Shown: positions 1,386 to 20,239 of the stretch, in pieces | How positions within the stretch are numbered: the stretch's first letter is position 1 | How the letters are laid out: the number at the start of each line of letters is the position of its first letter | Notes under the pieces: model-generated | The model's database searches: none | Told to the model about the DNA's origin: nothing | The model's input: only the letters and a program-made list of their open reading frames with translations | Made by a program: the position numbers and the translations under genes | Origin: a virus | Virus record (IMG/VR): IMGVR_UViG_3300037424_000898 | Coordinates: 1 to 64,000 of that record | Reading direction: 5' to 3' (one strand) | Length of the DNA stretch: 64,000 bases

Positions 1386-1422
1386 GTCGGGTCGGTTCGC
1401 TCAGCACGTCTGGAGGCGGTTC

Positions 1423-2517: not shown

Positions 2518-2536
2518 CGCCGAGCAGTATCGCGTC

Positions 2537-4106: not shown

Positions 4107-4348
4107 AACATCAGCATCAGTGCGTGTGCGAGCACAACAACATCAAGTTGTGCAAGGTGTGCAAGGTTCCGTACTGCGTGGATTGTGGCAAGGAGTGGCA
4201 GGAGAAGGTGTTGTACAACACGTACTACTCTACCTGCCAGTATCCAAACATCTACCAGCACCAAACCACAGGGGGCCGTTCGGACGTAGTGGCTCTCATG
4301 ACAAATGCGGATGACTGTGGGCACAGGCATGAATCAGACCGCCCTTGA
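4103..4348 (+). CDS. Cys-rich small protein (zinc-finger-like)
   Basis: ATGA overlap start. Contains QCVCEHNNIKLCKVCKVPYCVDCGKEW. The segment is visibly less GC-rich than its neighbours. Confidence 0.5.
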   Translation: MKHQHQCVCEHNNIKLCKVCKVPYCVDCGKEWQEKVLYNTYYSTCQYPNIYQHQTTGGRSDVVALMTNADDCGHRHESDRP

Positions 4349-4979
4349 CGCCATCTGCGCTCGGTACAAGGTGGCCGACCTTGCGGGGTCGTTGCCACTC
4401 GAACTGGCCGGCGGGGTGCGGGCTGACCTGCCGCACCTGTTCCGTGACCTCGGCTACACCGTGGGCGCGGAGATTGGCGTCTGGCAGGGAGAGTTCTCCG
4501 AAGCACTCTGTCAGGGCATCCCCGACCTGCACCTGTTCGCGGTCGATCCGTGGGTGCGGTACAAGGACTATCACGACTACGAACTCCGGGCGAGCCTGGA
4601 GGCGGCCCGCGAGATGGCGATGGCCCGGCTCGCGGCCTTCCGCCACGTCACCATCATTCCAAAGTTCTCGCTGGAGGCCGCTGAGGACATCCCCGACAAC
4701 TCACTCGATTTCGTCTACATCGACGCGAATCACGGCTTCGAATACGTCGTGGCGGACCTCGCCGCGTGGACGAAGAAGGTCAAGCCGGGCGGCATCATCA
4801 GCGGGCATGACTACGTGAACATCCGGCGGTCGATTCCCGGCTTCCGGGTCGTCGAGGCGGTGCAGGGCTGGACCCGGGCGAACGACATCAATCCCTGGTT
4901 CATTCTGGGCCGCACGAAGGTGCATCCCGACCGGGAACCGCGCGACAAAGAGCGCAGCTATCTGTGGGTGAAGCCGTGA
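4329..4979 (+). CDS. Class I SAM-dependent methyltransferase (Methyltransf_24 / sugar O-methyltransferase-like), paralog 1
   Basis: Motifs: GAEIGVWQGEFSE (SAM-binding loop), DFVYIDANH, GGIISGHDY. Paralogous to 5836-6471. The start is uncertain; in-frame ATGs occur at 4305, 4311 and 4329. Confidence 0.7.
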   Translation: MNQTALDAICARYKVADLAGSLPLELAGGVRADLPHLFRDLGYTVGAEIGVWQGEFSEALCQGIPDLHLFAVDPWVRYKDYHDYELRASLEAAREMAMARLAAFRHVTIIPKFSLEAAEDIPDNSLDFVYIDANHGFEYVVADLAAWTKKVKPGGIISGHDYVNIRRSIPGFRVVEAVQGWTRANDINPWFILGRTKVHPDREPRDKERSYLWVKP

Positions 4980-5839
4980 CGGTCCTCGTCACGGGCGGCA
5001 CCGGGTATCTCGGACAAGTGTTCGTCCGGTACGCCCTCGACCACGGGGCTGAGCAGGTGGTCGTGTTCTCGCGCAGCGAAGAGACGCAGCGCCGGATGCG
5101 GATGGACATGTCGGATTCCCGGCTGCACTTCTGGCTGGGGGATGTGCGCGACAACGGGGCCTTGGCCCGGGCGATGACGGTGCATCCGGTCGAGGTCATT
5201 GTCCATCTGGCCGCGCTGAAGCACGTCACGAACTGCGAGCAGTTTCCCTTGGAAGCGGTTCAAACGAACGTCGTCGGGACGGCGAACGTGATTGACGTGG
5301 CGACCCGCTACGGCGCGCGTGTGCTGGCGATGTCCAGCGACAAGGCCGTGCAGAGTACGTGCGTCTACGGGGCCACCAAGGCCCTCTTGGAGCGGATTAT
5401 CGTGGCGGCCGGCTTCTCGGCTGTCCGGGCGGGCAATCTGATTGGGTCGACAGGCAGTGTGCTGCCGGTCTGGCGAGAACAGGTGGCCAAAGGCGAGCCG
5501 ATTACCGTCACGGACCCGACGATGACGCGGTTCTACATGACCGTGGACGAGGCGGCGGCGTTCCTCTGGCGGGCGGTCCATGTGATGCGGGGCGGCGAGG
5601 TGTTCGTGCCGAAGCTGGGCGCCTGCCGGCTGGGCGATCTGGCCGATGCCATCAGTCCGCATCAGCGGGTCATCGGGGCACGACCGGGCGAGCGAACGCA
5701 CGAACTGCTCATCCTGGAGGACGAACCGGTGCGCGACGACGGGTGGGCCTACGTGGTGACGGCTGGCGAACGGCCCTTCGGCCGCGTGCTCGTCTCGAAT
5801 GCGGTCTACGCACTTGAGGCAGCCGAGGTGACGGCATGA
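4976..5839 (+). CDS. Extended-SDR nucleotide-sugar 4,6-dehydratase (CapD / PseB / FlaA1-like, Polysacc_synt_2)
   Basis: Motifs: VLVTGGTGYLG, LGDVRD, VHLAALKHV, MSSDKAV, YGATKAL (YxxxK), GSTGSVLPVW, ITVTDPTMTRFYMTVDEAA, GGEVFVPKL. GTGA overlap start; an alternative GTG is at 4964. Confidence 0.85.
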   Translation: MTVLVTGGTGYLGQVFVRYALDHGAEQVVVFSRSEETQRRMRMDMSDSRLHFWLGDVRDNGALARAMTVHPVEVIVHLAALKHVTNCEQFPLEAVQTNVVGTANVIDVATRYGARVLAMSSDKAVQSTCVYGATKALLERIIVAAGFSAVRAGNLIGSTGSVLPVWREQVAKGEPITVTDPTMTRFYMTVDEAAAFLWRAVHVMRGGEVFVPKLGACRLGDLADAISPHQRVIGARPGERTHELLILEDEPVRDDGWAYVVTAGERPFGRVLVSNAVYALEAAEVTA

Positions 5840-6471
5840 CGGGGGCCTGTCGCGCCACCTTGGGCATCGTCAGCCAGCACTCGCCGTTGCCGGTGAGTTT
5901 CACGGCACCGATGCCGATGGTGCTCTCGGACTTCGGGCGCTACCAGTTAGCGATGCTCTTTGCGGAGTGCGGCTTCACGCGCGGCGCGGAGATCGGGGTC
6001 GCGGCGGGGAAGTACGCCGAACAGCTCTGTCACGCCAATCCGGGCCTGCACCTGGCGTGCGTGGACGCGTGGGAGACGTATCCGGGTTACGCCGACCACA
6101 CGGCCGTGCGGCTAGTCGAGGCGCGACAGGAGGCTCGAAGACGCCTGGCGTCCTACGACTGCCGGTTGGTCAAGGCCATGAGCGTGGAGGCGGCGAAGCA
6201 GTTCCGGGATGGGTCGCTGGACTTCGTCTACCTGGACGCCAATCACCGGTTTGAATGCGTTGTGGCGGATCTGGCGGCTTGGAGTCCGAAGGTGCGAACG
6301 GGCGGGATTGTGGCAGGGCATGACTACCACGTCTTTCCGCAGCATCCGCACTGGCGGGTCATCGAAGCCGTTCAGTCCTGGGTGCAGGCGTACGACGTGA
6401 GCCCGTGGTTCCTGCTGGACTACGGGCACCGGGGCACGCGGATTCATAGCTACTTCTGGGTGAAGGAGTAA
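5836..6471 (+). CDS. Class I SAM-dependent methyltransferase (Methyltransf_24-like), paralog 2
   Basis: ATGA overlap start. Motifs: GAEIGVAAGKYAE, DFVYLDANH, GGIVAGHDY. Confidence 0.7.
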   Translation: MTGACRATLGIVSQHSPLPVSFTAPMPMVLSDFGRYQLAMLFAECGFTRGAEIGVAAGKYAEQLCHANPGLHLACVDAWETYPGYADHTAVRLVEARQEARRRLASYDCRLVKAMSVEAAKQFRDGSLDFVYLDANHRFECVVADLAAWSPKVRTGGIVAGHDYHVFPQHPHWRVIEAVQSWVQAYDVSPWFLLDYGHRGTRIHSYFWVKE

Positions 6472-6473
6472 CG

Positions 6474-6662
6474 ATGGGGATGATTCACACGAAATGTCCG
6501 CAATGTTGGGATCCGCTTCCATGCGGATGTTCTGTTCAAACGGAACGCGACGAGACCGCGGCCGCTAACGCTAAATACCAGCGTGACCGAACGGCCAAAG
6601 AACTCTTGGAAGAACAGAAAGAAACGAACCGCCTTTTGCGCCAGATAGCAGAACGGAAATGA
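6474..6662 (+). CDS. Small Cys-motif protein (HTKC-x2-CWDPLPC-x-C), paralog 2
   Basis: MGMIHTKCPQCWDPLPCGCSVQTERDE... matches the N-terminus of 2299-2517. The tail is helical and charged. Confidence 0.6.
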   Translation: MGMIHTKCPQCWDPLPCGCSVQTERDETAAANAKYQRDRTAKELLEEQKETNRLLRQIAERK

Positions 6663-7339
6663 ACATCGCGGTCATGTCGGCCAACCTCGGGAACGCGGAA
6701 GCGCCGGTCCAGCACGTCGCCCAGGTCGTGCCGCCCTGGACGACCGTGTCGATGCACCTGTTCACGGACGAGACCTTCCCGCCGCGCCGGGCCGCAATGA
6801 CGCCCAGGCTGCAGAGCAAGCTCCCGAAGCTGTTCGGCTGGGAGATGGTGCCGGACTCTGACGTCTATGTGTGGATTGACGCGGCGTTCCGGCTGGCCCG
6901 CGAAGACTCCATCATCTGGCTGCTTCGACAACTGGCCGATCACGACATCGTCTTCTTCGAGCACCCGGAGCGACAAACTATCGAGGAAGAAGCCGCGTTT
7001 CTTCGGGACAACCTCGCCACGAGTCAGCGGCTTCAGGCGCGGTATCAGGGGGAACTGCTGGATGAGCAGATGGAGGCCATTCGGGCGACCTTCTCCTACG
7101 ACGAGCACCTGTACGCCAGCGGGATCTTCGCCTACCGGCCGATCCATCGTGTCAAGCAGGCGATGAAGGAATGGTGGTTCCACATCTCGCGCTACCACCT
7201 GAATGACCAGTTGTCGTTGCCCTACGCACTGGCGAGCGCGGACTGTGACGTGGCGACGATTGACGCACAGATCGGATACGGCTACCACGAGCCCCACTTT
7301 GAGTTCACGCGGACCAGCCGGAGGGTGAAGCGTGCCTGA
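6659..7339 (+). CDS. DUF616 / TOD1-MUCI70-like putative glycosyltransferase
   Basis: ATGA overlap start. Motifs LQSKLPKLFGWEMVPDSDVYVWIDAAFRL, FFEHPERQTIEEEA and NDQLSLPYAL match the remembered DUF616 pattern. Confidence 0.5.
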   Translation: MNIAVMSANLGNAEAPVQHVAQVVPPWTTVSMHLFTDETFPPRRAAMTPRLQSKLPKLFGWEMVPDSDVYVWIDAAFRLAREDSIIWLLRQLADHDIVFFEHPERQTIEEEAAFLRDNLATSQRLQARYQGELLDEQMEAIRATFSYDEHLYASGIFAYRPIHRVKQAMKEWWFHISRYHLNDQLSLPYALASADCDVATIDAQIGYGYHEPHFEFTRTSRRVKRA

Positions 7340-8354
7340 CCTCTCCGTGCTCATCGCATCGCGGAATGAGGTGTTCCTCAAGAACACCGTAGAGGACGTG
7401 TTGACGCACGCGGAGGCTGATACCGACGTCATCGCCGTCTGCGACGGGGCTTGGCCGACTCCGCCGCTCGTGGACCATCCGAAGGTCACGCTTGTGCATC
7501 ACGCGAGCATCGGGCAGCGGGCGGCGGTGAACGAGGCGGCCCGGCTCTCGACGGCGACCTACGTGATGAAGCTGGACGCGCACTGTGCGCTCGATCAGGG
7601 CTTCGACCGGAAGCTGATCGAGCCCTACGAACGGGGCGAATTGGCGCGCGAGGACACCACGATTCCCCGACTCTACAACCTGCACGCCTTCGACTGGCAG
7701 TGCCGGGCGTGTGGGGACCGGATCTACCAGGGAGCCAAGCCGTCAGCCTGCGGGAAGTGCAAGAGTCCGGAGGGCTTTGAGCGCGTCATGGTGTGGAAAC
7801 CGCGCTGGCATCGGAAAACGGACTTCAACCGGTTCGACGCCAACCTCCAATACCAGTACTGGCAGGGCGTGGACAAGCGGCCGGCGTCCCAGGGCGAGCT
7901 CGCCGACATGATGACGGCGCTCGGGGCGTGCTTCTTCATGCGTCGGGATCGGTTCTGGGAGTTGGGCGGGATGGACGAGGAACACGGTTCATGGGGCCAG
8001 TTCGGGGTCGAGGTGGCGCTGAAGTCGTGGCTGTCGGGCGGGCGGCATGTTGTGAACAAGCGGACGTGGTACAGCCACATGTTCCGCACGCACGGCGGGC
8101 CGGAGTGGGGCTTCCCCTACCCGATGTCCAATTCGCAGGTCGAGACGGCCCGAAAGCACTCGCGGGCCATGTGGTACCAGAACGCCTGGCCGCGACAGGT
8201 CCGGCCGCTCGACTGGCTAGTGGAGAGATTCGAGCCGGTCCCGGGCTGGCACCAGCCCGCATCGAAGGACGACCCACCGCAGCGCGAGGCGATTCTGGCG
8301 ATGGTGCAGCAGGCGGCGCTGATCTTCAGCCCGCGGCGCGAGGTGGCGGCATGA
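7332..8354 (+). CDS. GT-A fold glycosyltransferase (GT2 / ppGalNAc-T-like), paralog 3, with an inserted Cys4 zinc ribbon
   Basis: Motifs: SVLIASRNE...VIAVCDGAWPTPPL, VMKLDAHCAL (DxH), WGQFGVEVALKSWLSGGRHVVNKRTWYSHMFR. The insert is CRACGDRIYQGAKPSACGKC. Confidence 0.75.
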   Translation: MPDLSVLIASRNEVFLKNTVEDVLTHAEADTDVIAVCDGAWPTPPLVDHPKVTLVHHASIGQRAAVNEAARLSTATYVMKLDAHCALDQGFDRKLIEPYERGELAREDTTIPRLYNLHAFDWQCRACGDRIYQGAKPSACGKCKSPEGFERVMVWKPRWHRKTDFNRFDANLQYQYWQGVDKRPASQGELADMMTALGACFFMRRDRFWELGGMDEEHGSWGQFGVEVALKSWLSGGRHVVNKRTWYSHMFRTHGGPEWGFPYPMSNSQVETARKHSRAMWYQNAWPRQVRPLDWLVERFEPVPGWHQPASKDDPPQREAILAMVQQAALIFSPRREVAA

Positions 8355-9142
8355 CGAAGGGCATCGTCTACTACTCCGACTGCCGCGGCGACCCGGCCAT
8401 CCTCGAGACATGCTGGGCTCAACTACTCCGTGCCACGGCGGGCCTGTCGCTCGTGTCCGTGACGCTGCAGCCTGTCCCGGGCCTTGGGCTGAACATCGTG
8501 CCCTACCAGTCGGATGACACGGTGATCTGGGTCGATTCGAGTGAGCCGCCCGCCTCGCCGGAGCCATTCGCCCGGGAGTGGACACCGCTTGAGCGCGGCC
8601 GGCTGACGATGTTCCGCCAGATCCTCGCGGGTCTCGAAGCGCTGGACACCGACGTCGCGTTTCTGGCGGAGCATGACGTGCTGTACCCACCAGAGCACTT
8701 CGACTTCACGCCGCCGTCCGCCGACCGCTATTACTACGACGTTCACTGGTATCGGCTCGACGCGCACACCGGGCGGGCCGTGAGCTATCTGGCCAACCAG
8801 GTATCTGGCCTCTGCGCTGACCGGGAACTGCTGATTCAGCACTACCGGGCGCGCGTGGCGCGGACGGAACAGGCTGGCTACGACCACGGCACGGGCTACG
8901 AACCGGGGAACCATCCGCCGCCCCGTGGCATCGACCACGTGCCGCAGGAACGGTTCCGGGCGGCGCAGCCCTATATCGACATCCGCCACGGCTGCAACAT
9001 CACGGCCTCACGCTGGTCGCAGGACGGATTCCGCGACAAGCGGACGTGTACGGAGTGGCGCGAGGTGGACGAGATTCCCGGCTGGGGTCCGACGAAGGGC
9101 CGCTTTCCCGCGTTTCTGGCCGACGTGAGGGCACGCACATGA
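8351..9142 (+). CDS. Putative glycosyltransferase-like protein (unclassified)
   Basis: ATGA overlap start. Contains IVYYSDCRGDP...VSVTLQP...RGRLTMFRQILAGLEALDTDVAFLAEHDVLYPPEHF. The call rests on cluster context and an acidic EHD motif only. Confidence 0.4.
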   Translation: MTKGIVYYSDCRGDPAILETCWAQLLRATAGLSLVSVTLQPVPGLGLNIVPYQSDDTVIWVDSSEPPASPEPFAREWTPLERGRLTMFRQILAGLEALDTDVAFLAEHDVLYPPEHFDFTPPSADRYYYDVHWYRLDAHTGRAVSYLANQVSGLCADRELLIQHYRARVARTEQAGYDHGTGYEPGNHPPPRGIDHVPQERFRAAQPYIDIRHGCNITASRWSQDGFRDKRTCTEWREVDEIPGWGPTKGRFPAFLADVRART

Positions 9143-9843
9143 CCGCAAACAGTCTGATTCAACAGGCGCTCAAGTCCATCGGCGTGCTCGCGGCCGGGGA
9201 AACGCTGGGCGCGAGCGAGGCAACCGATTGTCTCACCGCGCTGAACGCGATGATCGACACGTGGGCGATCCACCACCTGACAATCGCCTACCGGACCCGT
9301 TCGACCTATGCGCTCGTCGCGGGGACGCAGACCTACTCCATTGGCGCAAGCGGCACGTTCGATCAAGTGCGGCCGGTCTATCTGGACGGCATCACCATCG
9401 CGCTTTCGGCGAGTCCGACCATCGAGACGCGGCTGGAGCCCTACACGGAAGACGAGTGGCGGATTCTCTCGACGCGGAGCCAGTCGGGCACGCCCAACCG
9501 GTACTACTACCGCAAGACGTTCCCGCTGGCCTACCTGTCGTTCTGGCCGGTGCCGGATGCGGCCGATACGGTGGCGATTTCGTGGGGCACGCCGCTCACC
9601 GAGTTCGCCACGCTTCTGACGGACTACGACCTGGCGCCGGGCTACCGGGAAGCGATTCGCTACAACCTTGCCGTGCGGCTCTGTCCGGAGTTTGGACGTC
9701 CACTCGATCCGACCGTCGCGCAGCTGGCCGTCGAGACGCTGGGCACCATCAAGCGGGCGAATATCACGCCAATGGACATGAGCGTGGACGCGGCGCTGTT
9801 GTTCAACACGAACAGCGCGTTCAACATCAACACCGGGGAGTGA
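9139..9843 (+). CDS. Head-to-tail adaptor, P22 gp4-like
   Basis: ATGA overlap start. The N-terminus QQALKSIGVLAAGETLGASEATDCLTALNAMIDTW resembles the P22 gp4 N-terminus (ALRKLGV...L..M...W). It lies immediately upstream of the gp10-like gene. Confidence 0.6.
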   Translation: MTANSLIQQALKSIGVLAAGETLGASEATDCLTALNAMIDTWAIHHLTIAYRTRSTYALVAGTQTYSIGASGTFDQVRPVYLDGITIALSASPTIETRLEPYTEDEWRILSTRSQSGTPNRYYYRKTFPLAYLSFWPVPDAADTVAISWGTPLTEFATLLTDYDLAPGYREAIRYNLAVRLCPEFGRPLDPTVAQLAVETLGTIKRANITPMDMSVDAALLFNTNSAFNINTGE

Positions 9844-9846
9844 GTC

Positions 9847-10095
9847 ATGCAGACCAACTCGTCCTACAACTACGCGAAGGCGGAAACCAAGAGCGACACG
9901 GTGGATTTCCAGAAGGGCACCTGTGACGCGATCTTCGTCGGGACCGAGGCGGGCAACGTGACCGTCGTGCTGGAGAACGGCGACACGGTGCTGTTCGTGG
10001 CCGTTCCGGTCGGGACGATTCTGCCGATTCGGGCGAAGCGCATCAACAGCACCGGAACCGGTAGTTCCACCTTCGTGGCGCTGTACCAGAAGTAA
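9847..10095 (+). CDS. Small virion-module protein, unknown function
   Basis: 82-aa ORF with GGGGAG upstream, located between the adaptor and the hub genes. Confidence 0.6.
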   Translation: MQTNSSYNYAKAETKSDTVDFQKGTCDAIFVGTEAGNVTVVLENGDTVLFVAVPVGTILPIRAKRINSTGTGSSTFVALYQK

Positions 10096-10100: not shown

Positions 10101-11279
10101 ATGCCTCGATATGCGGGCTTCATCGGCGGGACGCAGGTTCACCGTTCGTTGAACGTGAACGCGGAGCGGACGATCAACTTCTATCCGGAGTTGACCCAGC
10201 CGGGGAACGCCAAGAGTCCGATTGTGCTCCTCGGGACGCCGGGGCTGCGCGTGTTCGCGGATGCGGGCGGGTCGCCGATCTATGGCCTATGGGCGCAGGA
10301 CGGGCGCGTGTTCGCCGTGGCGGGCTCCTCCTTGGTCGAAGTCTTCGCCGACCGCACGACGACGGTGCGAGGCGTCGTGGCGGACAACGGCACGCCCGCC
10401 ACCATCGTGTCGAACGGCGTCGGTGGGTTTCAGTTGATGGTGATTGCCGGCGAACGGCTCTACTGCTACGACTTGCGAACCGACGAACTGACACAGATTT
10501 CGGGCACGCCGGCGCTCTCGGTGTCGGCCTCGCCATCGGGGAGTGACGATGGGGAGAGCGACTTCCCCGAGCGCGTGATGATGGGCGACTACATCGACGG
10601 GTACTTCGTGGTACTCGCCGGGGAGTGGCAACTCTACATCAGCGCGTTGAACGACGGGACAACCTGGGACGTCGCCGACACCGCGCAGGTGTCGAGCAGC
10701 AGCAACCGGATTCTGGCGCTCATCTGCGACCACAAGGAAGTGTGGCTGTTCGGATCGCGCAAAAGCGAGGTCTGGATCAACACCGGGAATGCTGATTTTC
10801 CGTTCGGCCCGATTCAGGGTGTCTTCATCGAGTTCGGCATCTGGGCGCCGTTCTCCGTGGCTCGCATCGACAACACCCTGTTCTGGATTGGCGCGGACGA
10901 ACGCGGGGCGGGCAAGGTCTACCGGATGCAGGGCTACAACCCGATCCGCATCTCGACCCATGCCGTCGAATACGCCTTCGGGCAGTCGTCCCGGCTGACG
11001 GAGGCGATCGCGTTCACGTACGACGAGGAGGGGCACAGCTTCTACTTCGTGTATGTGCCGGACCTCGAAACCTCGTGGGTCTACGACGTGGCGATAGGCC
11101 TTTGGCATGAACGGGCCATGTGGGACGCGACGTTCTCGCGCTGGTGGCCGCATCTCGCGCGGTGTCACTGCTTCACGACGTGGGGTCAGCACCTGGTTGG
11201 CGACCGGCAGAGCGGCACCATCTACCAGATGAGCCTGGACTACCTCGATGACGAACTGGTCATCGACGGAGGGTTATAG
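10101..11279 (+). CDS. P22 gp10-like tail hub ('phage stabilisation protein'), N-terminal propeller part only
   Basis: Motifs: INFYPE, LYISALNDGTTWDVADTAQ, EVWLFGSRKSEVWINTGNADFPFGP, FWIGADERGAGKVYRMQGYNPIRISTHAVEYA, GDRQSGTIYQMSLDYLDDE. It ends at TAG 11277-11279, just before the point where homologues continue into the C-terminal module. Confidence 0.7.
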   Translation: MPRYAGFIGGTQVHRSLNVNAERTINFYPELTQPGNAKSPIVLLGTPGLRVFADAGGSPIYGLWAQDGRVFAVAGSSLVEVFADRTTTVRGVVADNGTPATIVSNGVGGFQLMVIAGERLYCYDLRTDELTQISGTPALSVSASPSGSDDGESDFPERVMMGDYIDGYFVVLAGEWQLYISALNDGTTWDVADTAQVSSSSNRILALICDHKEVWLFGSRKSEVWINTGNADFPFGPIQGVFIEFGIWAPFSVARIDNTLFWIGADERGAGKVYRMQGYNPIRISTHAVEYAFGQSSRLTEAIAFTYDEEGHSFYFVYVPDLETSWVYDVAIGLWHERAMWDATFSRWWPHLARCHCFTTWGQHLVGDRQSGTIYQMSLDYLDDELVIDGGL

Positions 11280-13037
11280 GTGGGCCAGACAGCCGCAACA
11301 GCAACGGTCATTGCCAGCTTGCCCACGACGATTGTGGAGGACATCGCCGGTCTGGCCGGGGATCAACAGGTCTGGTACACCTACACGACCAATGGCACGG
11401 AATGCGCCTTCGGCGTCTACATCTGGTCTGAGCCGACGTGGGACTACCGCAAGGAAATTGTGATCTACTCCGGCACGCCGGAGGATCTGACGACCGTGTT
11501 TACGGTGTCTCCCACCGTAGGCACGTTGCAGGACAACTTCCCGATTTGCGTTCCCGTTGTCGGCGTGACGACCTACTACGTCCGAGTCCGCAACACGACG
11601 TTCGTGCAGCCGGATCCGGATGCGCCGCCGCTGACGGTGATGTTCACGCCTGCCCCGGTGGAGTCTGTCCCGCTGGGGTCGTTGCTCATTCCAGACGACA
11701 GTGAGGGGCATCCGCTCGTCGCGCTGGACGCCACCGATGGCCATGTGCGGCGCGTGGTGCATCCGTTTCCGCATGGGGAGACGGGCGCAACCTCGCCGGT
11801 CACGGGGCGTATTCTGGTCCGATCCGACGATCTGACGCGCATCGCCCTGTACGACTCTGACGTGTCATTGGTTACGGAGATTTCCGGTTTCCATGCCTCG
11901 GTCGAGAGCGACTGGTTTCCGCAGTTCTGCTGCTCAGAGGCGGGCACGTTCTATGTCGTGGACGAGGACGTGTCGGGCACGGGCGCATTGTGGCTGTGGG
12001 TCATTGCCGATGATGGTACTGTCATCAGCACAACCGACTTTCCGCTCACAGCCTATGTTGCGCTAGGCGGGATCGGCGTCTCTCCCGATGAGACGATCCT
12101 CTACTACGTCCAGAGCAACGGGGTCTTTCGGTACGATCTGGCGACCGGGACTAGTCTGGGTCTCTTCGTGGCGAACGCGGGCGGATACAACCCGCTGATG
12201 AATGGCGACTTCGCAGTCTATGCCGACGGATCCTTCCTGCTGTCGTGCAAGAAAACAATCGGTGGGGCCGCGTATGCGGTCAAACGATATGGCGCTGACG
12301 GGACGTTGCTGACGGCATATGTCATGACGGACGATCCGGCGGAGTGGTACATCCATCATATCGCCCGCGGCGTGACGGACAGCACGTTCTGGGTGTGGCA
12401 ACAGGCGATCGGGGTATTCGGGTATTACAACGGGTACGACAAATTTACTGAGTTCAACATCAGTGACGGATCGGTGGCGAGAGCGCTACCCACAGTGGTG
12501 GCGTTCAGCGAGGGAATTGCGATAATTGCGGGCGATGTGGACGCGCCCCGGTTCGCACACTCAAAGTCCTGTCCACTGCTCATTGCCCGCGTTGCAATAG
12601 CGTCGGCGTCCCCCTCCTCATCGCGTTCGGCCAGCGCGTCCGTGTCTCCGTCGGCGTCCTCGTCGCCCTCGCCATCCCCGAGCATGGCCGAGGAGCAGAC
12701 ATACCTGATTCGGCGGCTCCGGCAGGCGCCACACCTGTCCGACGAGCACCGCTGGCAGTTCCATCAACGCTTTCAGTTGGATCTGGAAACAGGCGTCGGG
12801 CTGTCGAGTGGACAGGGATCGGATCCCCAGATCATGTTGTGCTGGAGCGACGACCACGGGCACACCTGGAGTCACGAGCATTGGACGAGCGCGGGGAAGA
12901 TCGGCGAGTTCAAGAGGCGTGCGCTGTGGTACCGGCTGGGGCGAACGCGGGATCGGATCTATCGGGTGGTGGTGAGCGATCCGGTGAAGTGGGCGCTGGT
13001 TGATGCCTACTTGCAACTGGAATCGGGACGGCGGTAA
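11280..13037 (+). CDS. Tail protein: beta-propeller-like domain, Ser-X linker, then gp10-type C-terminal module
   Basis: GTG start after GGAGGG, in the same frame as the previous ORF. The C-terminus YLIRRLRQAPHL..LDLETGVGL..QIMLCWSDDHGHTWSHEHW..FKRRALWYRLGRTRDRIYRVVVSDPVKW matches the gp10-family C-terminus. Confidence 0.75.
   Translation: MGQTAATATVIASLPTTIVEDIAGLAGDQQVWYTYTTNGTECAFGVYIWSEPTWDYRKEIVIYSGTPEDLTTVFTVSPTVGTLQDNFPICVPVVGVTTYYVRVRNTTFVQPDPDAPPLTVMFTPAPVESVPLGSLLIPDDSEGHPLVALDATDGHVRRVVHPFPHGETGATSPVTGRILVRSDDLTRIALYDSDVSLVTEISGFHASVESDWFPQFCCSEAGTFYVVDEDVSGTGALWLWVIADDGTVISTTDFPLTAYVALGGIGVSPDETILYYVQSNGVFRYDLATGTSLGLFVANAGGYNPLMNGDFAVYADGSFLLSCKKTIGGAAYAVKRYGADGTLLTAYVMTDDPAEWYIHHIARGVTDSTFWVWQQAIGVFGYYNGYDKFTEFNISDGSVARALPTVVAFSEGIAIIAGDVDAPRFAHSKSCPLLIARVAIASASPSSSRSASASVSPSASSSPSPSPSMAEEQTYLIRRLRQAPHLSDEHRWQFHQRFQLDLETGVGLSSGQGSDPQIMLCWSDDHGHTWSHEHWTSAGKIGEFKRRALWYRLGRTRDRIYRVVVSDPVKWALVDAYLQLESGRR
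12603..12683 (+). repeat. Coding Ser-rich linker
   Basis: [27 protein letters not shown] lies immediately before the gp10-type C-module. Confidence 0.85.
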
Positions 13038-15029
13038 ATGGCAACAACGCAATTCTTCTGCACCCGCTCGACGAACAACGTCCTCGGCACGGCTGCCGCC
13101 ATGTACGGTGATGTATCGCAGGCGCAGACGTGGAGCGCAACCGAGACGCTTGGTCGTCAACGGTGGGAGGTTGCAGGGAACTTTCGTAATCTGATCTTCA
13201 CAATTCCAACCGCGCCAGGCGCCGGAACGAGTTGGACGGTCGCGCTGCGAATCAACGGGGCTGACTCTGGGCTCACCTGCACGATCGCGGACGCGAACAC
13301 AACGGCGCGGCTCACTGGGACGGACGGGGCGGTAGCGGCAGGCGACATCATCAGCTGGAAACTCACGCACAGCGGCACACCCGCGAACATCGCAAATACG
13401 TGGATCTCGGTGGAGTTCGAGGCCACGGCAGCGGGGGAGAGTGGGTACGGATATGCGGCCGGCTATGTCAACTCCTTCGCTGGCACCTATCGCAATGGGC
13501 TGTTTTTGGATCTCGGGTGGTACAACGGTGCCGGGTCGCTCCAGCAACAGGTCATCCCTGTCGCCGGCACGATTGACGGGCTGGGTCTGCTTGCGACAGG
13601 CACGCTGTCTGCCGGGCAATCCCAAGTAGTCTGCCTCTATCTGAACGGAGTGAAGCAGGACGGCACAGGCGGAACGGTCAACACGGTCACGACCGTTGGC
13701 GCTGGCCAATACCAGGCGTGGACGCCATTCACGTTAGCAGTGGTCCCGGGAGATTTCGTCTACGTCGAGACGGTGCAATCGCACAACTTCATAGCCGGTG
13801 CCAGCCCGACCTGCAAGTTCACGGCGACAACAGACGGCGAGGCAATGGTATTTGGGGGGTCATACGACGCCCTCAGTCCGGACTCTACCAGGTACCTCAA
13901 TCCAAATTGGGCCTCAGCATGGGTCTGGCAGCTAGCCGAAAGCGCGGCGATCGTCTACGGCGGCGTCAGCACCGTCACGCTCGATCGGTTACGGGTTGAG
14001 TTGCGCGGCACGCCTGGCGCGGGCAACAACTACGCGATTTCTCTGCGGCAAAACGGAGCGTCTCCCGCTGGTGGGCCGGGCGTCACAATCGCTGATGCCG
14101 AAACCTCCGCGTATGATGCAACGGGAACAGTCACGATCGCGGATGAAGACACCTGGGACTTTCGATCGATTCCGACCAGCTCGCCGACTGTGGCATCAAC
14201 CCATTGGGCGATGCGGCAGACTCTCGGAGGGGCTGCTGGAAGCGAGAGCCCCTCAATATCGGCCTCAGTTAGCGCTTCTGTATCGGCGTCCGAAAGTCCA
14301 TCGGTTTCGCCGTCGCAGTCCGTGTCGCAGTCGGAGAGTCCGTCCGCCACACCATCAGTGTCCGCGTCCGTCAGCGCGTCAGTGTCGCCGTCGGTGTCCG
14401 AGTCGATCAGCCCTTCGCTCTCGCCCTCGGCATCCGGGTCCGTGTCTGAGTCGGCATCGCCCTCGGCATCGCCGTCGATTTCTGAGTCGGTGTCGCCAAG
14501 CGTGTCTGGGTCCGAGTCACCATCGGCTTCCCCGTCACAATCCGAGAGTGCCAGCGCCAGCCTGTCGCCGTCCCGGTCGGCCTCACTGTCGCTCTCGCGG
14601 TCGCCGTCTGGCACGCCGTCTCGCTCCCCGTCGCCTTCACCGTCGCCGTCCATCAGTAGCTACAACGGCATCTGCTGGGGTGAGCAGTATCCGGACGCGG
14701 ACGAACAACCGGTCTCGTGGCAGGCATGGGAAGTCGCGCCGGCCATCAAGGGCGAGGTCGAAGGGGATCCCGACTGGGGCCGACTAGAAGTGGCCGGCGG
14801 CGATGTTTACGTGAGTTCCATCGTGGACATGGGTGACGACGCGCTCAAACGCATCTGGTCGATTCGGGACAAGTACGGCATCGGCACTGGAACGGTAACA
14901 GTCTCCGTGCGGGGCAGCGCGATGATCTTCGGGCAGCATGATGCCTCGCCCGCGTGGGCCACCTATACAGGCGCGGTGACGGAGTCCTGGCGCTATGTGC
15001 AGTGGCGCCTGATTTACGTGTCGGGATGA
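13038..15029 (+). CDS. Virion (tail/fibre-associated) protein with internally repeated beta-sandwich-like domains and a long (Ser-X)n tract
   Basis: 663 aa. An internal repeat is visible (APGAGTSWTVALRINGADSGLTCTIADANTTA versus TPGAGNNYAISLRQNGASPAGGPGVTIADAETSA). A 140-aa Ser-X tract precedes a ~120-aa C-terminal domain. Confidence 0.75.
   Translation: MATTQFFCTRSTNNVLGTAAAMYGDVSQAQTWSATETLGRQRWEVAGNFRNLIFTIPTAPGAGTSWTVALRINGADSGLTCTIADANTTARLTGTDGAVAAGDIISWKLTHSGTPANIANTWISVEFEATAAGESGYGYAAGYVNSFAGTYRNGLFLDLGWYNGAGSLQQQVIPVAGTIDGLGLLATGTLSAGQSQVVCLYLNGVKQDGTGGTVNTVTTVGAGQYQAWTPFTLAVVPGDFVYVETVQSHNFIAGASPTCKFTATTDGEAMVFGGSYDALSPDSTRYLNPNWASAWVWQLAESAAIVYGGVSTVTLDRLRVELRGTPGAGNNYAISLRQNGASPAGGPGVTIADAETSAYDATGTVTIADEDTWDFRSIPTSSPTVASTHWAMRQTLGGAAGSESPSISASVSASVSASESPSVSPSQSVSQSESPSATPSVSASVSASVSPSVSESISPSLSPSASGSVSESASPSASPSISESVSPSVSGSESPSASPSQSESASASLSPSRSASLSLSRSPSGTPSRSPSPSPSPSISSYNGICWGEQYPDADEQPVSWQAWEVAPAIKGEVEGDPDWGRLEVAGGDVYVSSIVDMGDDALKRIWSIRDKYGIGTGTVTVSVRGSAMIFGQHDASPAWATYTGAVTESWRYVQWRLIYVSG
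14241..14660 (+). repeat. Coding (Ser-X)n tract
   Basis: [59 protein letters not shown]...SPSPSPSPSISS. Confidence 0.9.
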
Positions 15030-15039
15030 GAGGCGACTG

Positions 15040-16848
15040 ATGGACTTCCCGCAGACGCCGCTACTCGACAACTTCGACCGGGTCGATCAAGGGCCACCGC
15101 CCTCGTCGAACTGGTCTGCCTGGGAGCGCGGCGGCACGCTCAAGAATACCTCCGGCAAGGCCGGGACATCGACCAACTGGAACAAGAAGAACTCGGCGTA
15201 CTGGAACGTCTCGACCTTCGGGCCGGATTGCGAAGCCTGGGTCACAATCGACACCCTTGATACCACGGTCAATGATGCATCGCTGTTCGTGCGGGGCACG
15301 CCGGGCGCCGCGCCGACCTACTACGAGGCTCGCTGGAGTAGCGCAGGGATCGACGTGGGGCGGGTCGTGGCGGGTGGGACGTGGACGGCCATCGGGACGA
15401 CCATCGCGGCCTCGTTCACGAACGGCCACAAGCTGGGCGTCCGGATCTCTGGTTCGGACACCGTCACGATTGACATCTATACCGATACCGGCGCGGGCTG
15501 GACGCTCGCGGGCACGGTCACGGACACGGGCGCGGAGCGCATCACATCGGCGGGCTATCTCGTGCTTCGGGCTGGTGAGACGACGGGCGTTCCGACCTAC
15601 TATGACGACTTCGGCGGCGGCGACATCGAATTGGGCATCTCGGCGAGTGTCAGCCCGAGCGCGAGCACGTCGGAATCGACGAGCCCGAGCGTATCAGAAT
15701 CCGTGTCGGCTTCAGTCAGTGAGAGCCTGTCGGCATCGGTGTCCGCATCTGTCAGCGAGAGCGTGTCGCCGTCGGTGTCGGAGTCAGCGAGCGCGTCTCT
15801 GAGCCCAAGCCTGTCGGAGTCGGTTTCGCCCTCGTCCTCGACTTCGCCGTCCGAAAGCCCGAGCGTGTCGCCGTCGGGTTCCGTCAGCCCGAGTGAATCG
15901 GCCTCCGTGTCGCCGTCGGTATCTGAGTCGCGGTCGCCATCGGTCTCTGAATCGGCGTCCGACTCTGTCTCACCGTCTCTGTCCGAGTCGGCTTCGTCGT
16001 CGATCAGCCCGAGCCAGTCTGAATCCGTGTCGTCGTCAGTCTCGACGTCACAATCCGCATCTCCGTCTGTCAGCCCGAGCCAGTCGCCATCAAGTTCCCC
16101 ATCGGTGAGCCCGAGTCAGTCGGAATCGGCCTCACCGTCTGTCTCGGAATCTGCCTCGTCATCCGTGTCCCCTTCATCATCCGAATCCCGCTCGCCGTCG
16201 GTCTCGTTCTCAGGGAGCCCGTCTCCTTCGGAGGAGATTCCGACTGCGTTCGTGGACGACTTCGTCTGCCGATGGGAAGGCGTCTCGGCGTCCGTTTCGC
16301 CGTCGGTCTCTGAGTCCGCCTCGGTCTCGGCGTCGGCCAGTCCAAGCCGGTCGGCCTCTCTATCGCCGTCCATCTCCCCCTCGGCGTCTCCGTCGGTCAG
16401 CCCGAGTGCATCGGTCAGTCCCTCGGCGTCGCCGAGTGTCAGCCCGTCCGTCTCGGAATCGGCCTCGCCCTCGCCAAGCATTGGGTTGGAGGATGTCTAT
16501 CCGATCCGTCGCTTGCGCCGGGCGCCGCACATCTCATACGAAGCCAGCGGCATCTTCTATCACGAGTTCGAGTTGGATCTGGAAACCGGCGTCGGGTTGT
16601 CCATCGGCCGGGAGAACAGCCAGATCGGCGTCGATCCACAGGTCATGCTCCAGTGGTCGGACGATGGCGGACACACGTTCGGGAACGAGCACTGGGTGTC
16701 AGCGGGGCGAATCGGGCAGTTCGGGCGCCGGGCGGTGTGGCATCGACTCGGGCGGTCGAGGGACCGGGTGTTTCAGGTGGTCGTGACGGACCCCGTGAAG
16801 TGGTGCCTCATCGAAGCCTACCTCTACAGCGAGCCGGGACGGAGTTAG
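15040..16848 (+). CDS. Tail protein: N-terminal globular domain, two (Ser-X)n tracts, and a second copy of the gp10-type C-terminal module
   Basis: The C-terminus YPIRRLRRAPHI..LDLETGVGL..QVMLQWSDDGGHTFGNEHW..FGRRAVWHRLGRSRDRVFQVVVTDPVKW is paralogous to the end of 11280-13037. Confidence 0.75.
   Translation: MDFPQTPLLDNFDRVDQGPPPSSNWSAWERGGTLKNTSGKAGTSTNWNKKNSAYWNVSTFGPDCEAWVTIDTLDTTVNDASLFVRGTPGAAPTYYEARWSSAGIDVGRVVAGGTWTAIGTTIAASFTNGHKLGVRISGSDTVTIDIYTDTGAGWTLAGTVTDTGAERITSAGYLVLRAGETTGVPTYYDDFGGGDIELGISASVSPSASTSESTSPSVSESVSASVSESLSASVSASVSESVSPSVSESASASLSPSLSESVSPSSSTSPSESPSVSPSGSVSPSESASVSPSVSESRSPSVSESASDSVSPSLSESASSSISPSQSESVSSSVSTSQSASPSVSPSQSPSSSPSVSPSQSESASPSVSESASSSVSPSSSESRSPSVSFSGSPSPSEEIPTAFVDDFVCRWEGVSASVSPSVSESASVSASASPSRSASLSPSISPSASPSVSPSASVSPSASPSVSPSVSESASPSPSIGLEDVYPIRRLRRAPHISYEASGIFYHEFELDLETGVGLSIGRENSQIGVDPQVMLQWSDDGGHTFGNEHWVSAGRIGQFGRRAVWHRLGRSRDRVFQVVVTDPVKWCLIEAYLYSEPGRS
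15640..16230 (+). repeat. Coding (Ser-X)n tract, about 197 aa
   Basis: [57 protein letters not shown]... Confidence 0.9.
16285..16479 (+). repeat. Coding (Ser-X)n tract, second block
   Basis: [65 protein letters not shown]. Confidence 0.9.
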
Positions 16849-16851: not shown

Positions 16852-19041
16852 ATGGCCTTCACCATCGAGAGTTCACGCTACGTGACGGATGGTTCCTGGG
16901 GGGCGCCGTTTGTCTGGGCAGACGGCACCTTCGGCGTCATTCGGGTCGCGGCAAACTCGAAGACCATCTACTGCGAGGACGAAAGCGGCAGTGTCATCTG
17001 GCGGACGGATATCGAGGCGGGTGTCAGTTTCGTCCGGGCCGCGTGCTCGTCGTCGAACGCGGTCCTGGTGGTCGGCTCCTCGCTGCCGACTGGGACCGTC
17101 CAGATCCTCGTCGTGACCAATGGCGGGGCCGTGACGCGCATTCTGAACGGCATCGCCTACGGCCCGATGCTCTGCGCGTGGGACGACGACGGCTGGACTG
17201 TGGACATTCAGCGGACAGCCACGACGTATGACCATGTGCGCTACAGCGCGGCGGGTGCGCTGGTCTCGACTGACGCGCGAGGCACGGTGTCTGGGGCTGG
17301 TTTCGGAAGCTACAGCTACAACGGCACGCCCCTGATTGCCGCGACGAGCGATTCCGTGCCGATCAGTGACGGGCGCACGTTGACCAGCACGCGGCGGATC
17401 CCAGACATCGTGGTGGGCATCGTCTCGAGCACCGCCGGGACCATTGCAATCGAGGTAGACGGGGAGACGACCACACTCAATCTGGCGGCGACGCTGGCCG
17501 ATCCGCAGGTCGCCGGCACGGCCGACCGCCTCATCGTGACGGCGGCGACGGCTCAGGGCTTCTACGTCGGCATCGTGGCGCACGATCTGCCGGACGCCAC
17601 AGTCGAGATGTTCACAGAACGCACGGGGCTCTGGTGCGGGTATGTCGGGGCCATCACGGATCGCTACGGCGATGCCGATGATCTGGACCTGAGCGCGACC
17701 TGCACGGTCATCGTGGATGAAACCGGGGCCTCCCCAAACGACCCGGCGGCCAAGGCGGCGCGCACCTCGCTCCCGATCATCGCGGACCTGTTGACGCTGC
17801 CCGGTGTGCCGGCCGATCAACTCCTGGCGGTCTGGCTCGATGCGACGAGCGAGGCGGCGCTTCTGAGCGCGGCGGCTTCGGCGGCGGCGGGCGCGGCAAT
17901 CGGTCTCCCAATCGTCGGCAACTGCGATGGCTTCATGCCGTCCGGCGCCTTGGCGAACATCGACTATCTCGGGATCGAAGTCTACCCGTTGACGACGACC
18001 GAGACGCCGGCCGCAGTCCAGGTGCGAGTACAGGCGGCCTTGACGGCTCTCGGGCCGACGGTGCCGGTCGTGCTGATCGGCAACGCCTACGACCACTCCG
18101 GGGACGGCTTCTCCAGTTGGTATCAGGGCGACCTGATCGGCTTGACGACCATCGTGCCGGATTTGATGCGCGCGAACGTGGGTGTGCAGGGGGTCCTCTG
18201 GTTCAACGCCATGCGGCCCTCGGGGCTCATCAATCACCCGGCGCTGATTCCCTACTGCAACGCCGTCTACGACGCCATCCCGGACGCCGAACCGTCCGGA
18301 TCTTCGGATGGCGACGAGTCGGGCAGTGAGACGTTTCCCGGCATGGGGCCGCTCGACCCTTACAAGGTGAAGGTGCTCCCGCCGATTCGGGATCCCGTGA
18401 CGGATGTGAAGGGCGAGGACCGGGCCACGCGGCAGTATCAACGCTGGTTTCTCGACATCCAGCGCCGGCTCGATACGACGCCGACCATTGTGACGGGCTA
18501 CCACGGCGAGCGGCCGTTGATTGACAGTGTGCCGAAGGGGACGCTGTTCTTCGACCGGTCGCGGTGGGTGTTCTATATCGCCTTGGAGGACGGCTGGCAC
18601 TGGGCGACGGGGATCATGATGGCGCGATTCGGAGACGTACTGGTGGCCTCTGGTGGAGGCGGGACGACACCGCCGACGCCGCCGACACCGCCCACGCCGG
18701 GCGATGCCCAAGCGCCGGACATGCTCACGACGCTACAGGCGGTCTACGACGCGGGCACGTGGGATCTGTCAGAGGCGAACGAGGACGCGGCGGACGGACG
18801 GGGCGCGTTCGTGGAAGTGGCGGTCGAGGCGCTCCACGCGCTCGATCCGAACTGGGGGCACGTCCGGAAGGACGGCGCGCAGAACCAGTACAACGGTCAT
18901 GCCGTGGACGCGATCAACTGGAAGCGACCGGACGGCCTGACATCCGAAATCTACGATGTCGTCGGCGGGTCCGGCGATCTCGTCTGGAACTTCATCGACG
19001 CCTCGGCAGCGAACCTGGCGCTTTGGTACTTTCCGGCATAG
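16852..19041 (+). CDS. Tail fibre / spike-like structural protein
   Basis: 729 aa with GGAG upstream. It has a TPPTPPTPPTP linker and the motif GTLFFDRSRWVFYIALEDGWHWATG, which is common in fibre proteins. The central region may be a TIM-barrel-like glycosidase (weak evidence). Confidence 0.65.
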   Translation: MAFTIESSRYVTDGSWGAPFVWADGTFGVIRVAANSKTIYCEDESGSVIWRTDIEAGVSFVRAACSSSNAVLVVGSSLPTGTVQILVVTNGGAVTRILNGIAYGPMLCAWDDDGWTVDIQRTATTYDHVRYSAAGALVSTDARGTVSGAGFGSYSYNGTPLIAATSDSVPISDGRTLTSTRRIPDIVVGIVSSTAGTIAIEVDGETTTLNLAATLADPQVAGTADRLIVTAATAQGFYVGIVAHDLPDATVEMFTERTGLWCGYVGAITDRYGDADDLDLSATCTVIVDETGASPNDPAAKAARTSLPIIADLLTLPGVPADQLLAVWLDATSEAALLSAAASAAAGAAIGLPIVGNCDGFMPSGALANIDYLGIEVYPLTTTETPAAVQVRVQAALTALGPTVPVVLIGNAYDHSGDGFSSWYQGDLIGLTTIVPDLMRANVGVQGVLWFNAMRPSGLINHPALIPYCNAVYDAIPDAEPSGSSDGDESGSETFPGMGPLDPYKVKVLPPIRDPVTDVKGEDRATRQYQRWFLDIQRRLDTTPTIVTGYHGERPLIDSVPKGTLFFDRSRWVFYIALEDGWHWATGIMMARFGDVLVASGGGGTTPPTPPTPPTPGDAQAPDMLTTLQAVYDAGTWDLSEANEDAADGRGAFVEVAVEALHALDPNWGHVRKDGAQNQYNGHAVDAINWKRPDGLTSEIYDVVGGSGDLVWNFIDASAANLALWYFPA

Positions 19042-19054
19042 GGGCGAGGAGCAG

Positions 19055-20239
19055 ATGGCGACGTCTCCGCTCATTCGGAATCCGTGGAGCCCGACGACGA
19101 TCAACGGCTGGTGGCCGCAAGTGTCGCCCGACGGGTTGTATGTGGCCTACGGAAACGGAACCGTCTACATCGCGGACCTCGCCACGGGAACCGAACACTA
19201 CGTTGGCACGGGTCGTCCGATGGGCTGGTACGGGGCGACGACGCTGTACATCCTCGAAGAACTGGATCCGAACGACAGTGTCAACACGACGCAACTCTTC
19301 TCCGTGGAAGTCGGGACGTGGACGAAGGTGAATCTGGGCATCAGCTACGCGCACGCGGCGGCCAACAGCTACGCAGCGGTCTCTGGGCATTGGGGGACGT
19401 GGCTCACAACGGGACTCCGGATTGTCTATGACGATGTGGTGATTCGGGCGGGGGACGCGTACGGGCTGGCAATGGCGGGCGACTATCTGATCACGCATCG
19501 GATGAGCGATTGGACCATTCAGGTCTACAAGAACGGCGTGTTTCAGCGCAGCATCGCGCAACTCGACGAGGACTACTTCTTTGCGGTGTCGGAGTCGGGC
19601 TGGGTCGCGTATCAGGGCGTCAAGGGCATCTATGTCTCGCCGCCGACCGGCCCACAGCATCGCATCAGTGCGGCGGTCGAAGGGCAATGGCAGAACCTCG
19701 GCCCGCTCGTGGAGAAGAACGGCAAGACGTGGGTGTTCTCGGGCGGCGGACCGGGCAACAACGCGGCCGTCTCCTACGTCTGGGGCCGCAACGCCGCGAT
19801 GACGGACCCGGCCTCACAGATCACGGTGTCGAGTCTGGGGCCGCTCTGGCTGTCGATTGTCTCGATTGATTCGGGATGGGTCATTGGGGGGACATCGGAT
19901 ACGGGCACGCTGTATGTGCATTGGACGGTTGGCGGCGGTTCTTCGAGCATCCCGACGGACCTCGGGCTGAACGATGTCGGGTTCTTGCTGTTCGTGGCGG
20001 ACTACAACCATTTACTCAGGTGGAACGGCATGGCGTGGGAGTTTGCGCCCGGGGACAACGGGAATGGCTACGTTGTGCAGGCGGCCGCGCTACCGGCCCC
20101 GTATGGATGGGTATTATCGAGTGGGGCTCAGACGACCAAGCTCACGCTGGGGACGCGCGTGACGGCGACCCGAGTGACGACGCCGGCCTTGACCACGGTC
20201 ACGGCGACGACGGCGCTCAAGTGGTATTACCGGAGGTAG
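19055..20239 (+). CDS. Tail fibre / receptor-binding candidate (propeller-like N-terminus, tail-collar-like C-terminus)
   Basis: ATG after GGGGCGAGGAG. Contains a PD40-like SPDGLYVAY motif. The C-terminal LLRWNGMAWEFAPGDNGNGYVV...PAPYGWVLSSG resembles phage tail collar domains. Confidence 0.6.
   Translation: MATSPLIRNPWSPTTINGWWPQVSPDGLYVAYGNGTVYIADLATGTEHYVGTGRPMGWYGATTLYILEELDPNDSVNTTQLFSVEVGTWTKVNLGISYAHAAANSYAAVSGHWGTWLTTGLRIVYDDVVIRAGDAYGLAMAGDYLITHRMSDWTIQVYKNGVFQRSIAQLDEDYFFAVSESGWVAYQGVKGIYVSPPTGPQHRISAAVEGQWQNLGPLVEKNGKTWVFSGGGPGNNAAVSYVWGRNAAMTDPASQITVSSLGPLWLSIVSIDSGWVIGGTSDTGTLYVHWTVGGGSSSIPTDLGLNDVGFLLFVADYNHLLRWNGMAWEFAPGDNGNGYVVQAAALPAPYGWVLSSGAQTTKLTLGTRVTATRVTTPALTTVTATTALKWYYRR

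Follow-up and report, generated by a model that had tools for sequence, protein, structure and literature searches.

How is a phage tail hub completed when its gene stops short of the last domain of the family? The question is raised by a P22 gp10-type hub gene in a 64,000-nt stretch of the IMG/VR record IMGVR_UViG_3300037424_000898, which is nearly all of a 64,052-bp contig and is called the window below (related loci carry L-numbers, and related proteins used in comparisons P-numbers). To judge from its genes, the source virus is a short-tailed phage (podophage) with a P22-like structural module. Its hub gene, open reading frame 1 (ORF1), encodes the N-terminal part of the family, and the C-terminal domain, here termed the C-module, is found at the ends of two other proteins of the same operon, ORF2 and ORF4. 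We consider it probable that the hub is formed from two chains, with the C-module acting in trans as the apical adaptor-binding domain that anchors the ORF2 propeller protein and the tethered domain of ORF4. The features at the centre of this question are as follows.

10101..11279, + strand: ORF1, the hub N-module gene (392 aa), encoding an N-terminal extension and six-bladed propeller without the C-terminal domain (phrog_578 and PDB matches).
11268..11282, + strand: gene junction, comprising the Shine-Dalgarno GGAGGG (11268-11273), the TAG of ORF1 (11277-11279) and the GTG start of ORF2 (11280-11282); read from the sequence, the N-terminus from GTG aligning with the N-termini of P0002 and P0003.
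12690..13037, + strand: C-module copy 1, ORF2 aa 471-585 plus stop codon, equivalent to the missing hub C-terminal domain (phrog_578; seven predicted β-strands).
16489..16848, + strand: C-module copy 2, ORF4 aa 484-602 plus stop codon (phrog_578; E 1e-59 with the C-module hidden Markov model (HMM)).

Measured against the PHROG profile phrog_578 (P22 gp10-type, 'head closure Hc3'; 486 positions), ORF1 residues 7-384 cover positions 8-364 (E 2e-80). PDB sequence matches are to the hubs of Pan3 (9vyg_M, E 3.8e-23) and Pam1 (7eeq_1, E 1.7e-20); a Pfam search of ORF1 returned nothing, yet precomputed PF11134 matches are recorded for ORF1 homologues. The N-terminal extension has been kept, with F7, G9, E22 and N26 conserved in N-only and intact hubs alike. 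Whereas P22-type hubs are single chains of ~440-490 aa that unite N-terminal extension, six-bladed propeller and C-terminal extension, ORF1 breaks off at profile position ~364, its sequence closing with ...GDRQSGTIYQMSLDYLDDELVIDGGL and then the TAG at 11277-11279. One propeller loop, near profile position ~135, tolerates insertions (73 to ~400 aa in P0222, P0214 and P0271), and ORF1 itself has a short Ser-rich stretch at this site (aa ~139-157, window 10515-10570).

The remainder of the profile is supplied by ORF2 (11280-13037, 585 aa, GTG start), whose residues 471-584 match positions 363-473 (E 6e-20), and again by ORF4 (15040-16848, 602 aa), whose residues 488-599 match positions 368-471 (E 2e-18). 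Because coverage of the profile by the three proteins is complementary, the hub break point is exact, far beyond chance. The two C-modules in the window are 64-65% identical to one another and both retain all family motifs; copy 1 shares 45-55% identity with the C-terminal ends of intact hubs in phages. A preliminary description of this DNA had assigned ORF1 to the propeller part of the P22 gp10 family, placed the missing module at the end of the next ORF and a second, diverged copy at the end of ORF4, and left the significance of the C-terminal similarity to be checked; the profile alignment bears out each of these points, with the break at ~364 and ORF1 not a complete family member. The exact end of ORF1 needed correction: the stop had been put directly after ...LDYLDDE, and seven further codons (LVIDGGL) precede the TAG.

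Might the break be an accident of this one contig, a nonsense mutation or an assembly error having cut ORF1 short and left the C-terminal similarities as remnants? One in-frame stop might, in principle, reflect a sequencing error. Among the best 120 of 3,829 N-module homologues, 102 encode proteins of 360-399 aa that end 12-18 residues past a GDRxSGxIY motif; five are intact hubs (480-492 aa) that run straight into ..DDxGxxIRRxRRAPH, and ~12 have a Ser-rich linker and other domains instead of the C-module. Intact relatives of 470-492 aa thus exist, while over 100 independent clusters, drawn from different samples, share the end point of ORF1. Between the two modules lie 470 codons of well-folded, conserved protein, and neither C-module has lost a family motif. 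With the recurrent end point, the 13 split loci and the varied junctions described below, an artefact or decay is effectively refuted, its probability being negligible.

Loss of the domain from the hub gene and its presence elsewhere go together. HMMs of both modules were run on N-only loci whose sequence extends 1.7 kb or more downstream. All 13 (the window, L003, L005, L006, L008, L010, L011, L038, L039, L040, L045, L049 and L050) have a C-module in the hub operon, immediately adjacent to the hub gene in 12 of them; the number of C-module genes is two in the window, L006 and L008 and one in the others. An additional C-module was found in 0 of 117 intact-hub records (34 phage records, 22 genome and metagenome-assembled genome (MAG) loci and 61 metagenome loci). 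Each of the 34 phage records has a single C-module place, and the genome and MAG loci, isolates of Bradyrhizobium, Sphingobium, Trinickia and Denitrobaculum included, are intact with one C-module in 22 of 22 cases. Whether relatives possess an uninterrupted gene, a check proposed at the outset, is thereby answered: intact single-gene hubs occur in deposited phages, genomes and metagenomes. The split itself is widespread among uncultivated relatives, and the clade that has it is so far known from metagenomes only. In the Rhodoferax phage P26218 both modules are contiguous in one gene (N part 23396-24463, C part 23081-23383). A further variant is seen in L012, where the hub N-module has its own ~260-aa C-terminal extension (8189-10084; P0053, 631 aa) and the sole C-module is a 36-residue remnant at 11844-11951 (RPIKRRRQSPHLSDEQMWLYVSSFQLDLETGIR, then stop), at the end of a ~516-aa uncalled open frame.

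The C-module is a portable, strictly C-terminal unit. A profile built from the two window copies found 5,537 matches among 1.84 billion representative proteins at E ≤ 1e-3, and in the best 149 of these the module always stands at the extreme C-terminus. Of these 149 clusters, 121 lack the N-module; the 121 range from 99 to 1380 aa, and 105 of them begin with M. The N-terminal parts of the carriers fall into 32 unrelated clusters, and long carriers match phrog_578 from position ~368 onward only. At the other extreme, complete bare C-module proteins of ~116-124 aa (P0132, P0134, P0191, P0195 and P0210) start exactly at the module boundary, for example with MP..IRRVRQCPH.., and since they bring no cargo they have no obvious role except completing a hub that lacks the module. 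Where fibres and tailspikes have a conserved N-terminal anchor and a variable C-terminal part, the shared module is C-terminal in all of the best 149. Of the two readings first offered for the locus, that of a split protein with the C-module as shared anchor is strongly supported by these comparisons: the split in over 100 clusters, its co-occurrence with a C-module gene in all 13 informative loci, and a C-module that is C-terminal on many unrelated proteins.

Some relatives include Ig (immunoglobulin)-like He_PIG/PKD and SpaA-like domains. The C-module has one permissive loop, GVGL..G..DPQ, with insertions of about +25 to +90 aa in P0229 and P0221, others in 8 metagenome hubs, and +5 aa in ORF4 (~16608-16622); P0221 and P0229 had been considered as single-chain relatives with an insertion at the N/C junction, and were set aside once their insertions proved to sit inside this loop. 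The unannotated PHROG family phrog_19101 (595-position profile) also ends in a C-module (positions ~520-595). It matches ORF2 aa 514-583 and ORF4 aa 531-600, not the N-terminal parts of either, and since it contains the module, some deposited phages or prophages may already hold unrecognized carriers.

The other of the two readings was that the two genes are joined in translation, amber read-through of the TAG at 11277-11279 giving a 978-aa single-chain hub with a ~470-residue insertion as its functional form. ORF2 does begin at the nucleotide after the TAG and in the same frame, and an abutting TAG|ATG junction is also present in L010. The frame match is automatic, because a start codon that abuts a stop codon is in frame by construction; junctions of the same type at 13037|13038 and 24318|24319 join unrelated gene pairs. 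We saw no sign of a suppressor tRNA or of genome-wide stop reassignment: TAG is an ordinary stop, with which 13 of the window's 59 crude gene calls end, and the window contains no tRNA gene (a suppressor tRNA may be encoded by the host). ORF2 is marked as an independent cistron by the GGAGGG Shine-Dalgarno 6 nt ahead of its GTG and by a conserved N-terminus, (M)GQTAATATVIASLP, which aligns with homologue N-termini such as MPPTNTTAATATVISSLP.

Relatives argue in the same direction. Across 12 adjacent pairs in which a hub gene is directly followed by a C-module gene (window included), the hub gene ends five times in TAA, four times in TGA and three times in TAG, and in nine pairs the second gene is read in another frame, mostly with a TAATG or TGATG overlap. 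The three same-frame pairs are those of the window, L010 and L038, the last with a 181-nt spacer. In L006, neither of the two C-module genes adjoins the hub gene. To judge from these junctions, ORF1 and ORF2 are separately translated cistrons, and a read-through hub is very unlikely. Programmed frameshifting at the overlaps was likewise rejected, the frame offsets being inconsistent (0, +1 and +2) and no obvious slippery sequence being visible by eye.

What, then, does the separate chain bring with it? Ahead of its C-module, ORF2 is modular.

11280..11654, + strand: N-terminal β-sandwich of ORF2, aa 1-125, with motifs TAATATxI and VWYTYT (AlphaFold2 predicted local distance difference test (pLDDT) about 75-96 per 10-residue block, all-β; invariant residues among homologues).
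11682..12485, + strand: six-bladed β-propeller of ORF2, aa 135-402, 24 strands (AlphaFold2 secondary structure, pLDDT mostly >90).
12615..12713, + strand: Ser/Pro-rich disordered linker of ORF2, aa 446-478 (pLDDT <50; Ser-rich tract).

The AlphaFold2 model from a 33-sequence alignment has a mean pLDDT of 84.6, and replaced an earlier model from a 3-sequence alignment (pLDDT 55). It agrees with the initial assignment of the first ~470 codons to an NHL/YVTN-like propeller and Ser linker, and adds the β-sandwich before the propeller. A Foldseek search with this model places the hubs of Pan3, Pam1, P22 and Sf6 at the top of the PDB matches, colinear over about 500-600 columns, and matches in the BFVD library are 'P22 Gp10' entries from uncultured phages. 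These matches raise another alternative, that the whole hub was duplicated, ORF2 being a highly diverged copy that forms its own ring or a mixed one with ORF1, and ORF1 a copy that has lost the C-domain. Both propellers have six four-stranded blades, and the ORF2 type is a conserved family. The template modelling (TM) scores of the model against these hubs are 0.24-0.32, however, with root mean square deviations of >19 Å, low values that reflect a different relative orientation of the domains; YVTN, NHL and YncE propellers, next in the list, fit the propeller part better (1q7f, 7nyq, 3vgz and 1l0q; target-normalized TM-score 0.44-0.60), and aa 135-402 have the six-bladed, four-stranded fold of the NHL/YVTN type. 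The idea that the ORF2 propeller is a diverged hub propeller fails at the level of profiles (hhalign probability 0.13%, E 0.44, for the ORF2 family against N-only hubs). ORF2 also has an extra 125-aa N-terminal domain and a disordered linker ahead of the C-module, and C-modules are found on dozens of non-propeller proteins as well as alone. We regard duplication of the whole hub as improbable.

Pfam NHL and YVTN repeat models found nothing beyond chance level in the ORF2 propeller at E ≤ 10. The ORF2 insert was not found in IMG/VR viral contigs or JGI metagenome contigs searched with degenerate patterns, nor in a collection of 50,697 deposited phage records, and a further word-indexed protein search with the ORF2 alignment added almost nothing. 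ORF2-type sequences form the largest N-terminal cluster of C-module carriers (74 of 115) and are the neighbouring partner in most split loci; by this distribution, ORF2 belongs to a conserved partner family and is not a variable add-on.

The second carrier, ORF4, is separated from ORF2 by a protein without a C-module.

13038..15029, + strand: ORF3, a 663-aa tail-operon protein between the two C-module genes, itself lacking the module, with a Ser-rich tract (aa 395-549).
15040..15618, + strand: N-terminal globular domain of ORF4, about 193 aa (sole relative P0193, over aa 1-73).
15619..16500, + strand: tether of ORF4, two Ser-X tracts (aa 194-404 and aa 409-487) with a gap of four residues, aa 405-408, between them (tandem 36- and 24-nt repeats).

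The two Ser-X tracts confirm the earlier description of ORF4 as a C-module fused through them to an unrelated N-terminal domain. That domain has no match in Pfam, PHROG, PDB or the 50,697 deposited phage records. The tract of ORF3 (155 aa) lies between two unassigned domains, and Pfam and PDB sequence searches with ORF3 returned nothing.

A structural precedent for the way in which the parts may come together is given by the Sf6 hub, a six-bladed propeller with four-stranded blades whose N- and C-terminal extensions jointly make up an apical 'lamin B1-like' (Ig-like) domain; this domain is wedged between two adaptor subunits, the hexameric hub ring standing on an adaptor dodecamer, and the tailspikes are attached laterally to the hub (PMC9728967). 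From its profile positions and this verbal description, the C-module would correspond to the C-terminal half of the apical domain. We propose that ORF1 provides the N-terminal extension and the propeller that form the hexameric hub ring, and that the C-terminal domain, translated apart from it at the C-terminal end of ORF2 (~115 residues) and, as a second copy, of ORF4, would pair in trans with the N-terminal extension of ORF1, rebuilding the apical domain at the adaptor-hub junction. The C-module thus most likely plugs ORF2 and ORF4 into the hub. A carrier would be locked into the tail by completion of a fold, and not by docking to a surface, with the rest of the protein projecting outward on its flexible Ser-rich linker. 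ORF2 would then act much like a second hub subunit, contributing six propellers in a ring of their own, and ORF4 an accessory, variable cargo, a ~190-aa domain on a ~290-aa tether. Since ORF4 uses the same anchor as ORF2, the virion would hold a mix of both. We would guess that the distal domains bind receptors, given their position, their tethering and the variety of N-terminal parts.

The Sf6 stoichiometry allows a different use of the same module. With a hub-to-adaptor ratio of 1:2 and each apical domain between two of the 12 adaptors, six equivalent interfaces are geometrically free; an N-only hub might therefore be self-sufficient, with the C-module docking elsewhere, for example at the free adaptor-adaptor interfaces, and up to 12 carriers bound (six ORF2 and six ORF4). 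Such an arrangement explains two C-module proteins without competition, and the module is indeed predicted as a compact seven-stranded unit by itself. It fits poorly with the finding that extra C-modules are confined to loci whose hub gene lacks the module (13 of 13 split loci, 0 of 117 intact-hub records), with the single C-module gene of most split genomes, with the existence of bare C-module proteins, and with retention in N-only hubs of the N-terminal extension, the partner of the C-terminal extension in Sf6. We judge a self-sufficient hub unlikely, if less so than duplication of the hub.

Several observations weigh against the two-chain hub with a trans-acting C-module. Two C-module proteins competing for six sites are unexplained. 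Where the downstream sequence extends 5 kb or more, most loci (8 of 11) have a single C-module gene. Confidence in the ORF2 model is lower over the C-module than elsewhere (pLDDT 62-88), and two C-modules from one genome do not consistently pair as nearest relatives (identity 65% in the window, 59% in L006 and 86% in L008). The spread of these pair identities indicates that the anchor was duplicated onto a second protein more than once. The L008 pair stands in adjoining genes (4639-5910 and 5907-7283), and its 86% identity points to a recent tandem duplication. For genomes with two carriers, we would expect the two-chain hub to be a mixed hexamer; less likely, the six free adaptor interfaces would be filled as well.

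To a broader proposal we give slightly less than an even chance: the C-module would be a general, portable 'fold-completion' anchor in a large clade of uncultivated podophages, whose appendages would be built in by supplying the missing domain of the hub, so that assembly of the hub on the adaptor ring would require them. Where a genome has two carriers, as here, the hubs would either be mixed and bear two different monomeric distal domains on mucin-like, possibly glycosylated tethers, or the carriers would fill all 12 adaptor interfaces.

Compared with known systems, the parts are familiar and their arrangement is not. ORF1 and the C-module together make up the whole profile of the P22 gp10, Sf6 gp8, Pam1 and Pan3 hubs ('packaged DNA stabilisation protein', PF11134, phrog_578); as in P22-type phages the gene follows directly on the adaptor in a P22-like module with P22-type portal and coat, and sequence or fold matches in the PDB are to 9vyg, 7eeq, 8eap, 8u10 and 7sg7. 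The difference lies in the C-terminal domain, which is found here on two other proteins (585 and 602 aa). A conserved anchor with interchangeable distal domains is also the design of podophage fibres and tailspikes, as in the head-binding domain of the P22 and Sf6 tailspikes. In T7, the N-terminus of gp17 anchors on the gp11/gp12 interface. The P22/Sf6 tailspike attachment is likewise at the adaptor-hub junction (PMC9728967). Unlike these anchors, the C-module has the reverse polarity, with anchor C-terminal and cargo N-terminal; it is a piece of the hub's own fold and not a separate docking domain; and one anchor is proposed per hub subunit in place of a trimer resolving a 3:6 mismatch.

An analogy may be drawn with donor-strand complementation, in which the Ig-like pilin folds of chaperone-usher pili are completed in trans by another chain. 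Here an Ig-like β-sandwich would be assembled from N-terminal strands of ORF1 and the seven strands of ORF2 or ORF4; the families and context are unrelated, and the likeness is limited to a possible working principle. PhiGT1-like podoviruses have duplicated adaptor genes ('dual tubeA'), with predicted effects on fibre number and symmetry (PMC10386132). There too, the tail-hub region derives from two paralogous or partner gene products, but it is the adaptor (tubeA) that is duplicated, the hub (tubeB) remaining unsplit with no domain moved to other proteins. In the literature searched (subscription journals being outside its coverage) we found no description of a split hub, under PF11134 or as a nozzle/anchor arrangement; the parts belong to the known P22 gp10 family, from whose single-chain architecture the split departs.

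If correct, the two-chain hub represents a new principle of attachment, a C-terminal anchor within the hub's own fold, which reverses the usual order of N-terminal anchor and C-terminal receptor-binding part and ties fibre incorporation to hub assembly. It predicts that each hub protomer consists of two chains and that six propellers form an additional ring. For annotation, the thousands of metagenomic proteins that match the P22 gp10 or phage stabilisation family only over their last ~110 residues would be hub-anchored tail proteins and not hubs, and 'hubs' of ~375 aa would be incomplete alone. A C-module search would offer a simple rule for finding candidate host-recognition proteins in the split clade, and in phage engineering the module might serve as a defined handle by which distal domains are exchanged.

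The setting of the locus agrees with its assignment to a P22-like module, with the hub gene at 10101 preceded by the adaptor gene and one small gene.

9136..9843, + strand: head-to-tail adaptor gene of P22 gp4 / Sf6 gp7 type, the ring on which the hub docks (phrog_12985, E 1.4e-45; phrog_637 'head-tail adaptor Ad3', E 7.8e-10).
9847..10095, + strand: small 82-aa tail protein gene between the adaptor and hub genes (phrog_12296, E 6.9e-14).
58166-60460: P22-type portal gene on the same near-complete contig.
62642-63886: P22-type major head protein gene on the same near-complete contig.

Adaptor homologues in L011 and L012 have a weak match to PF24175 (SU10_adaptor), and a gene of similar size to the 82-aa gene lies directly upstream of the hub gene in L010. 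The tail operon reads adaptor, 82-aa protein, ORF1, ORF2, ORF3, ORF4, further large proteins, an acetyltransferase, a DNA-ejection protein and a tailspike-like protein. Pfam and PHROG searches gave zero family matches for the large proteins at 13038-15029 (ORF3), 16852-19041, 18956-20239 and 22465-27129.

Within the structural module, a sugar-modification cluster (window 1336-8354) separates the head genes from the adaptor gene.

1336-2298, 3219-4106 and 7332-8354: three GT2 glycosyltransferase genes.
4305-4979 and 5836-6471: two Methyltransf_24 genes.
4964-5839: Polysacc_synt_2/epimerase gene.
6659-7339: TOD1/MUCI70-like gene.

Long Ser-X-Ser-X tracts are present in ORF2, ORF3 and ORF4 (window 12576-12710, 14220-14684 and 15619-16500); together with the cluster, they suggest that the tethers on the virion are O-glycosylated and mucin-like. 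In L001 (MW202691), a 'polysaccharide biosynthesis' gene also lies between the coat and adaptor genes.

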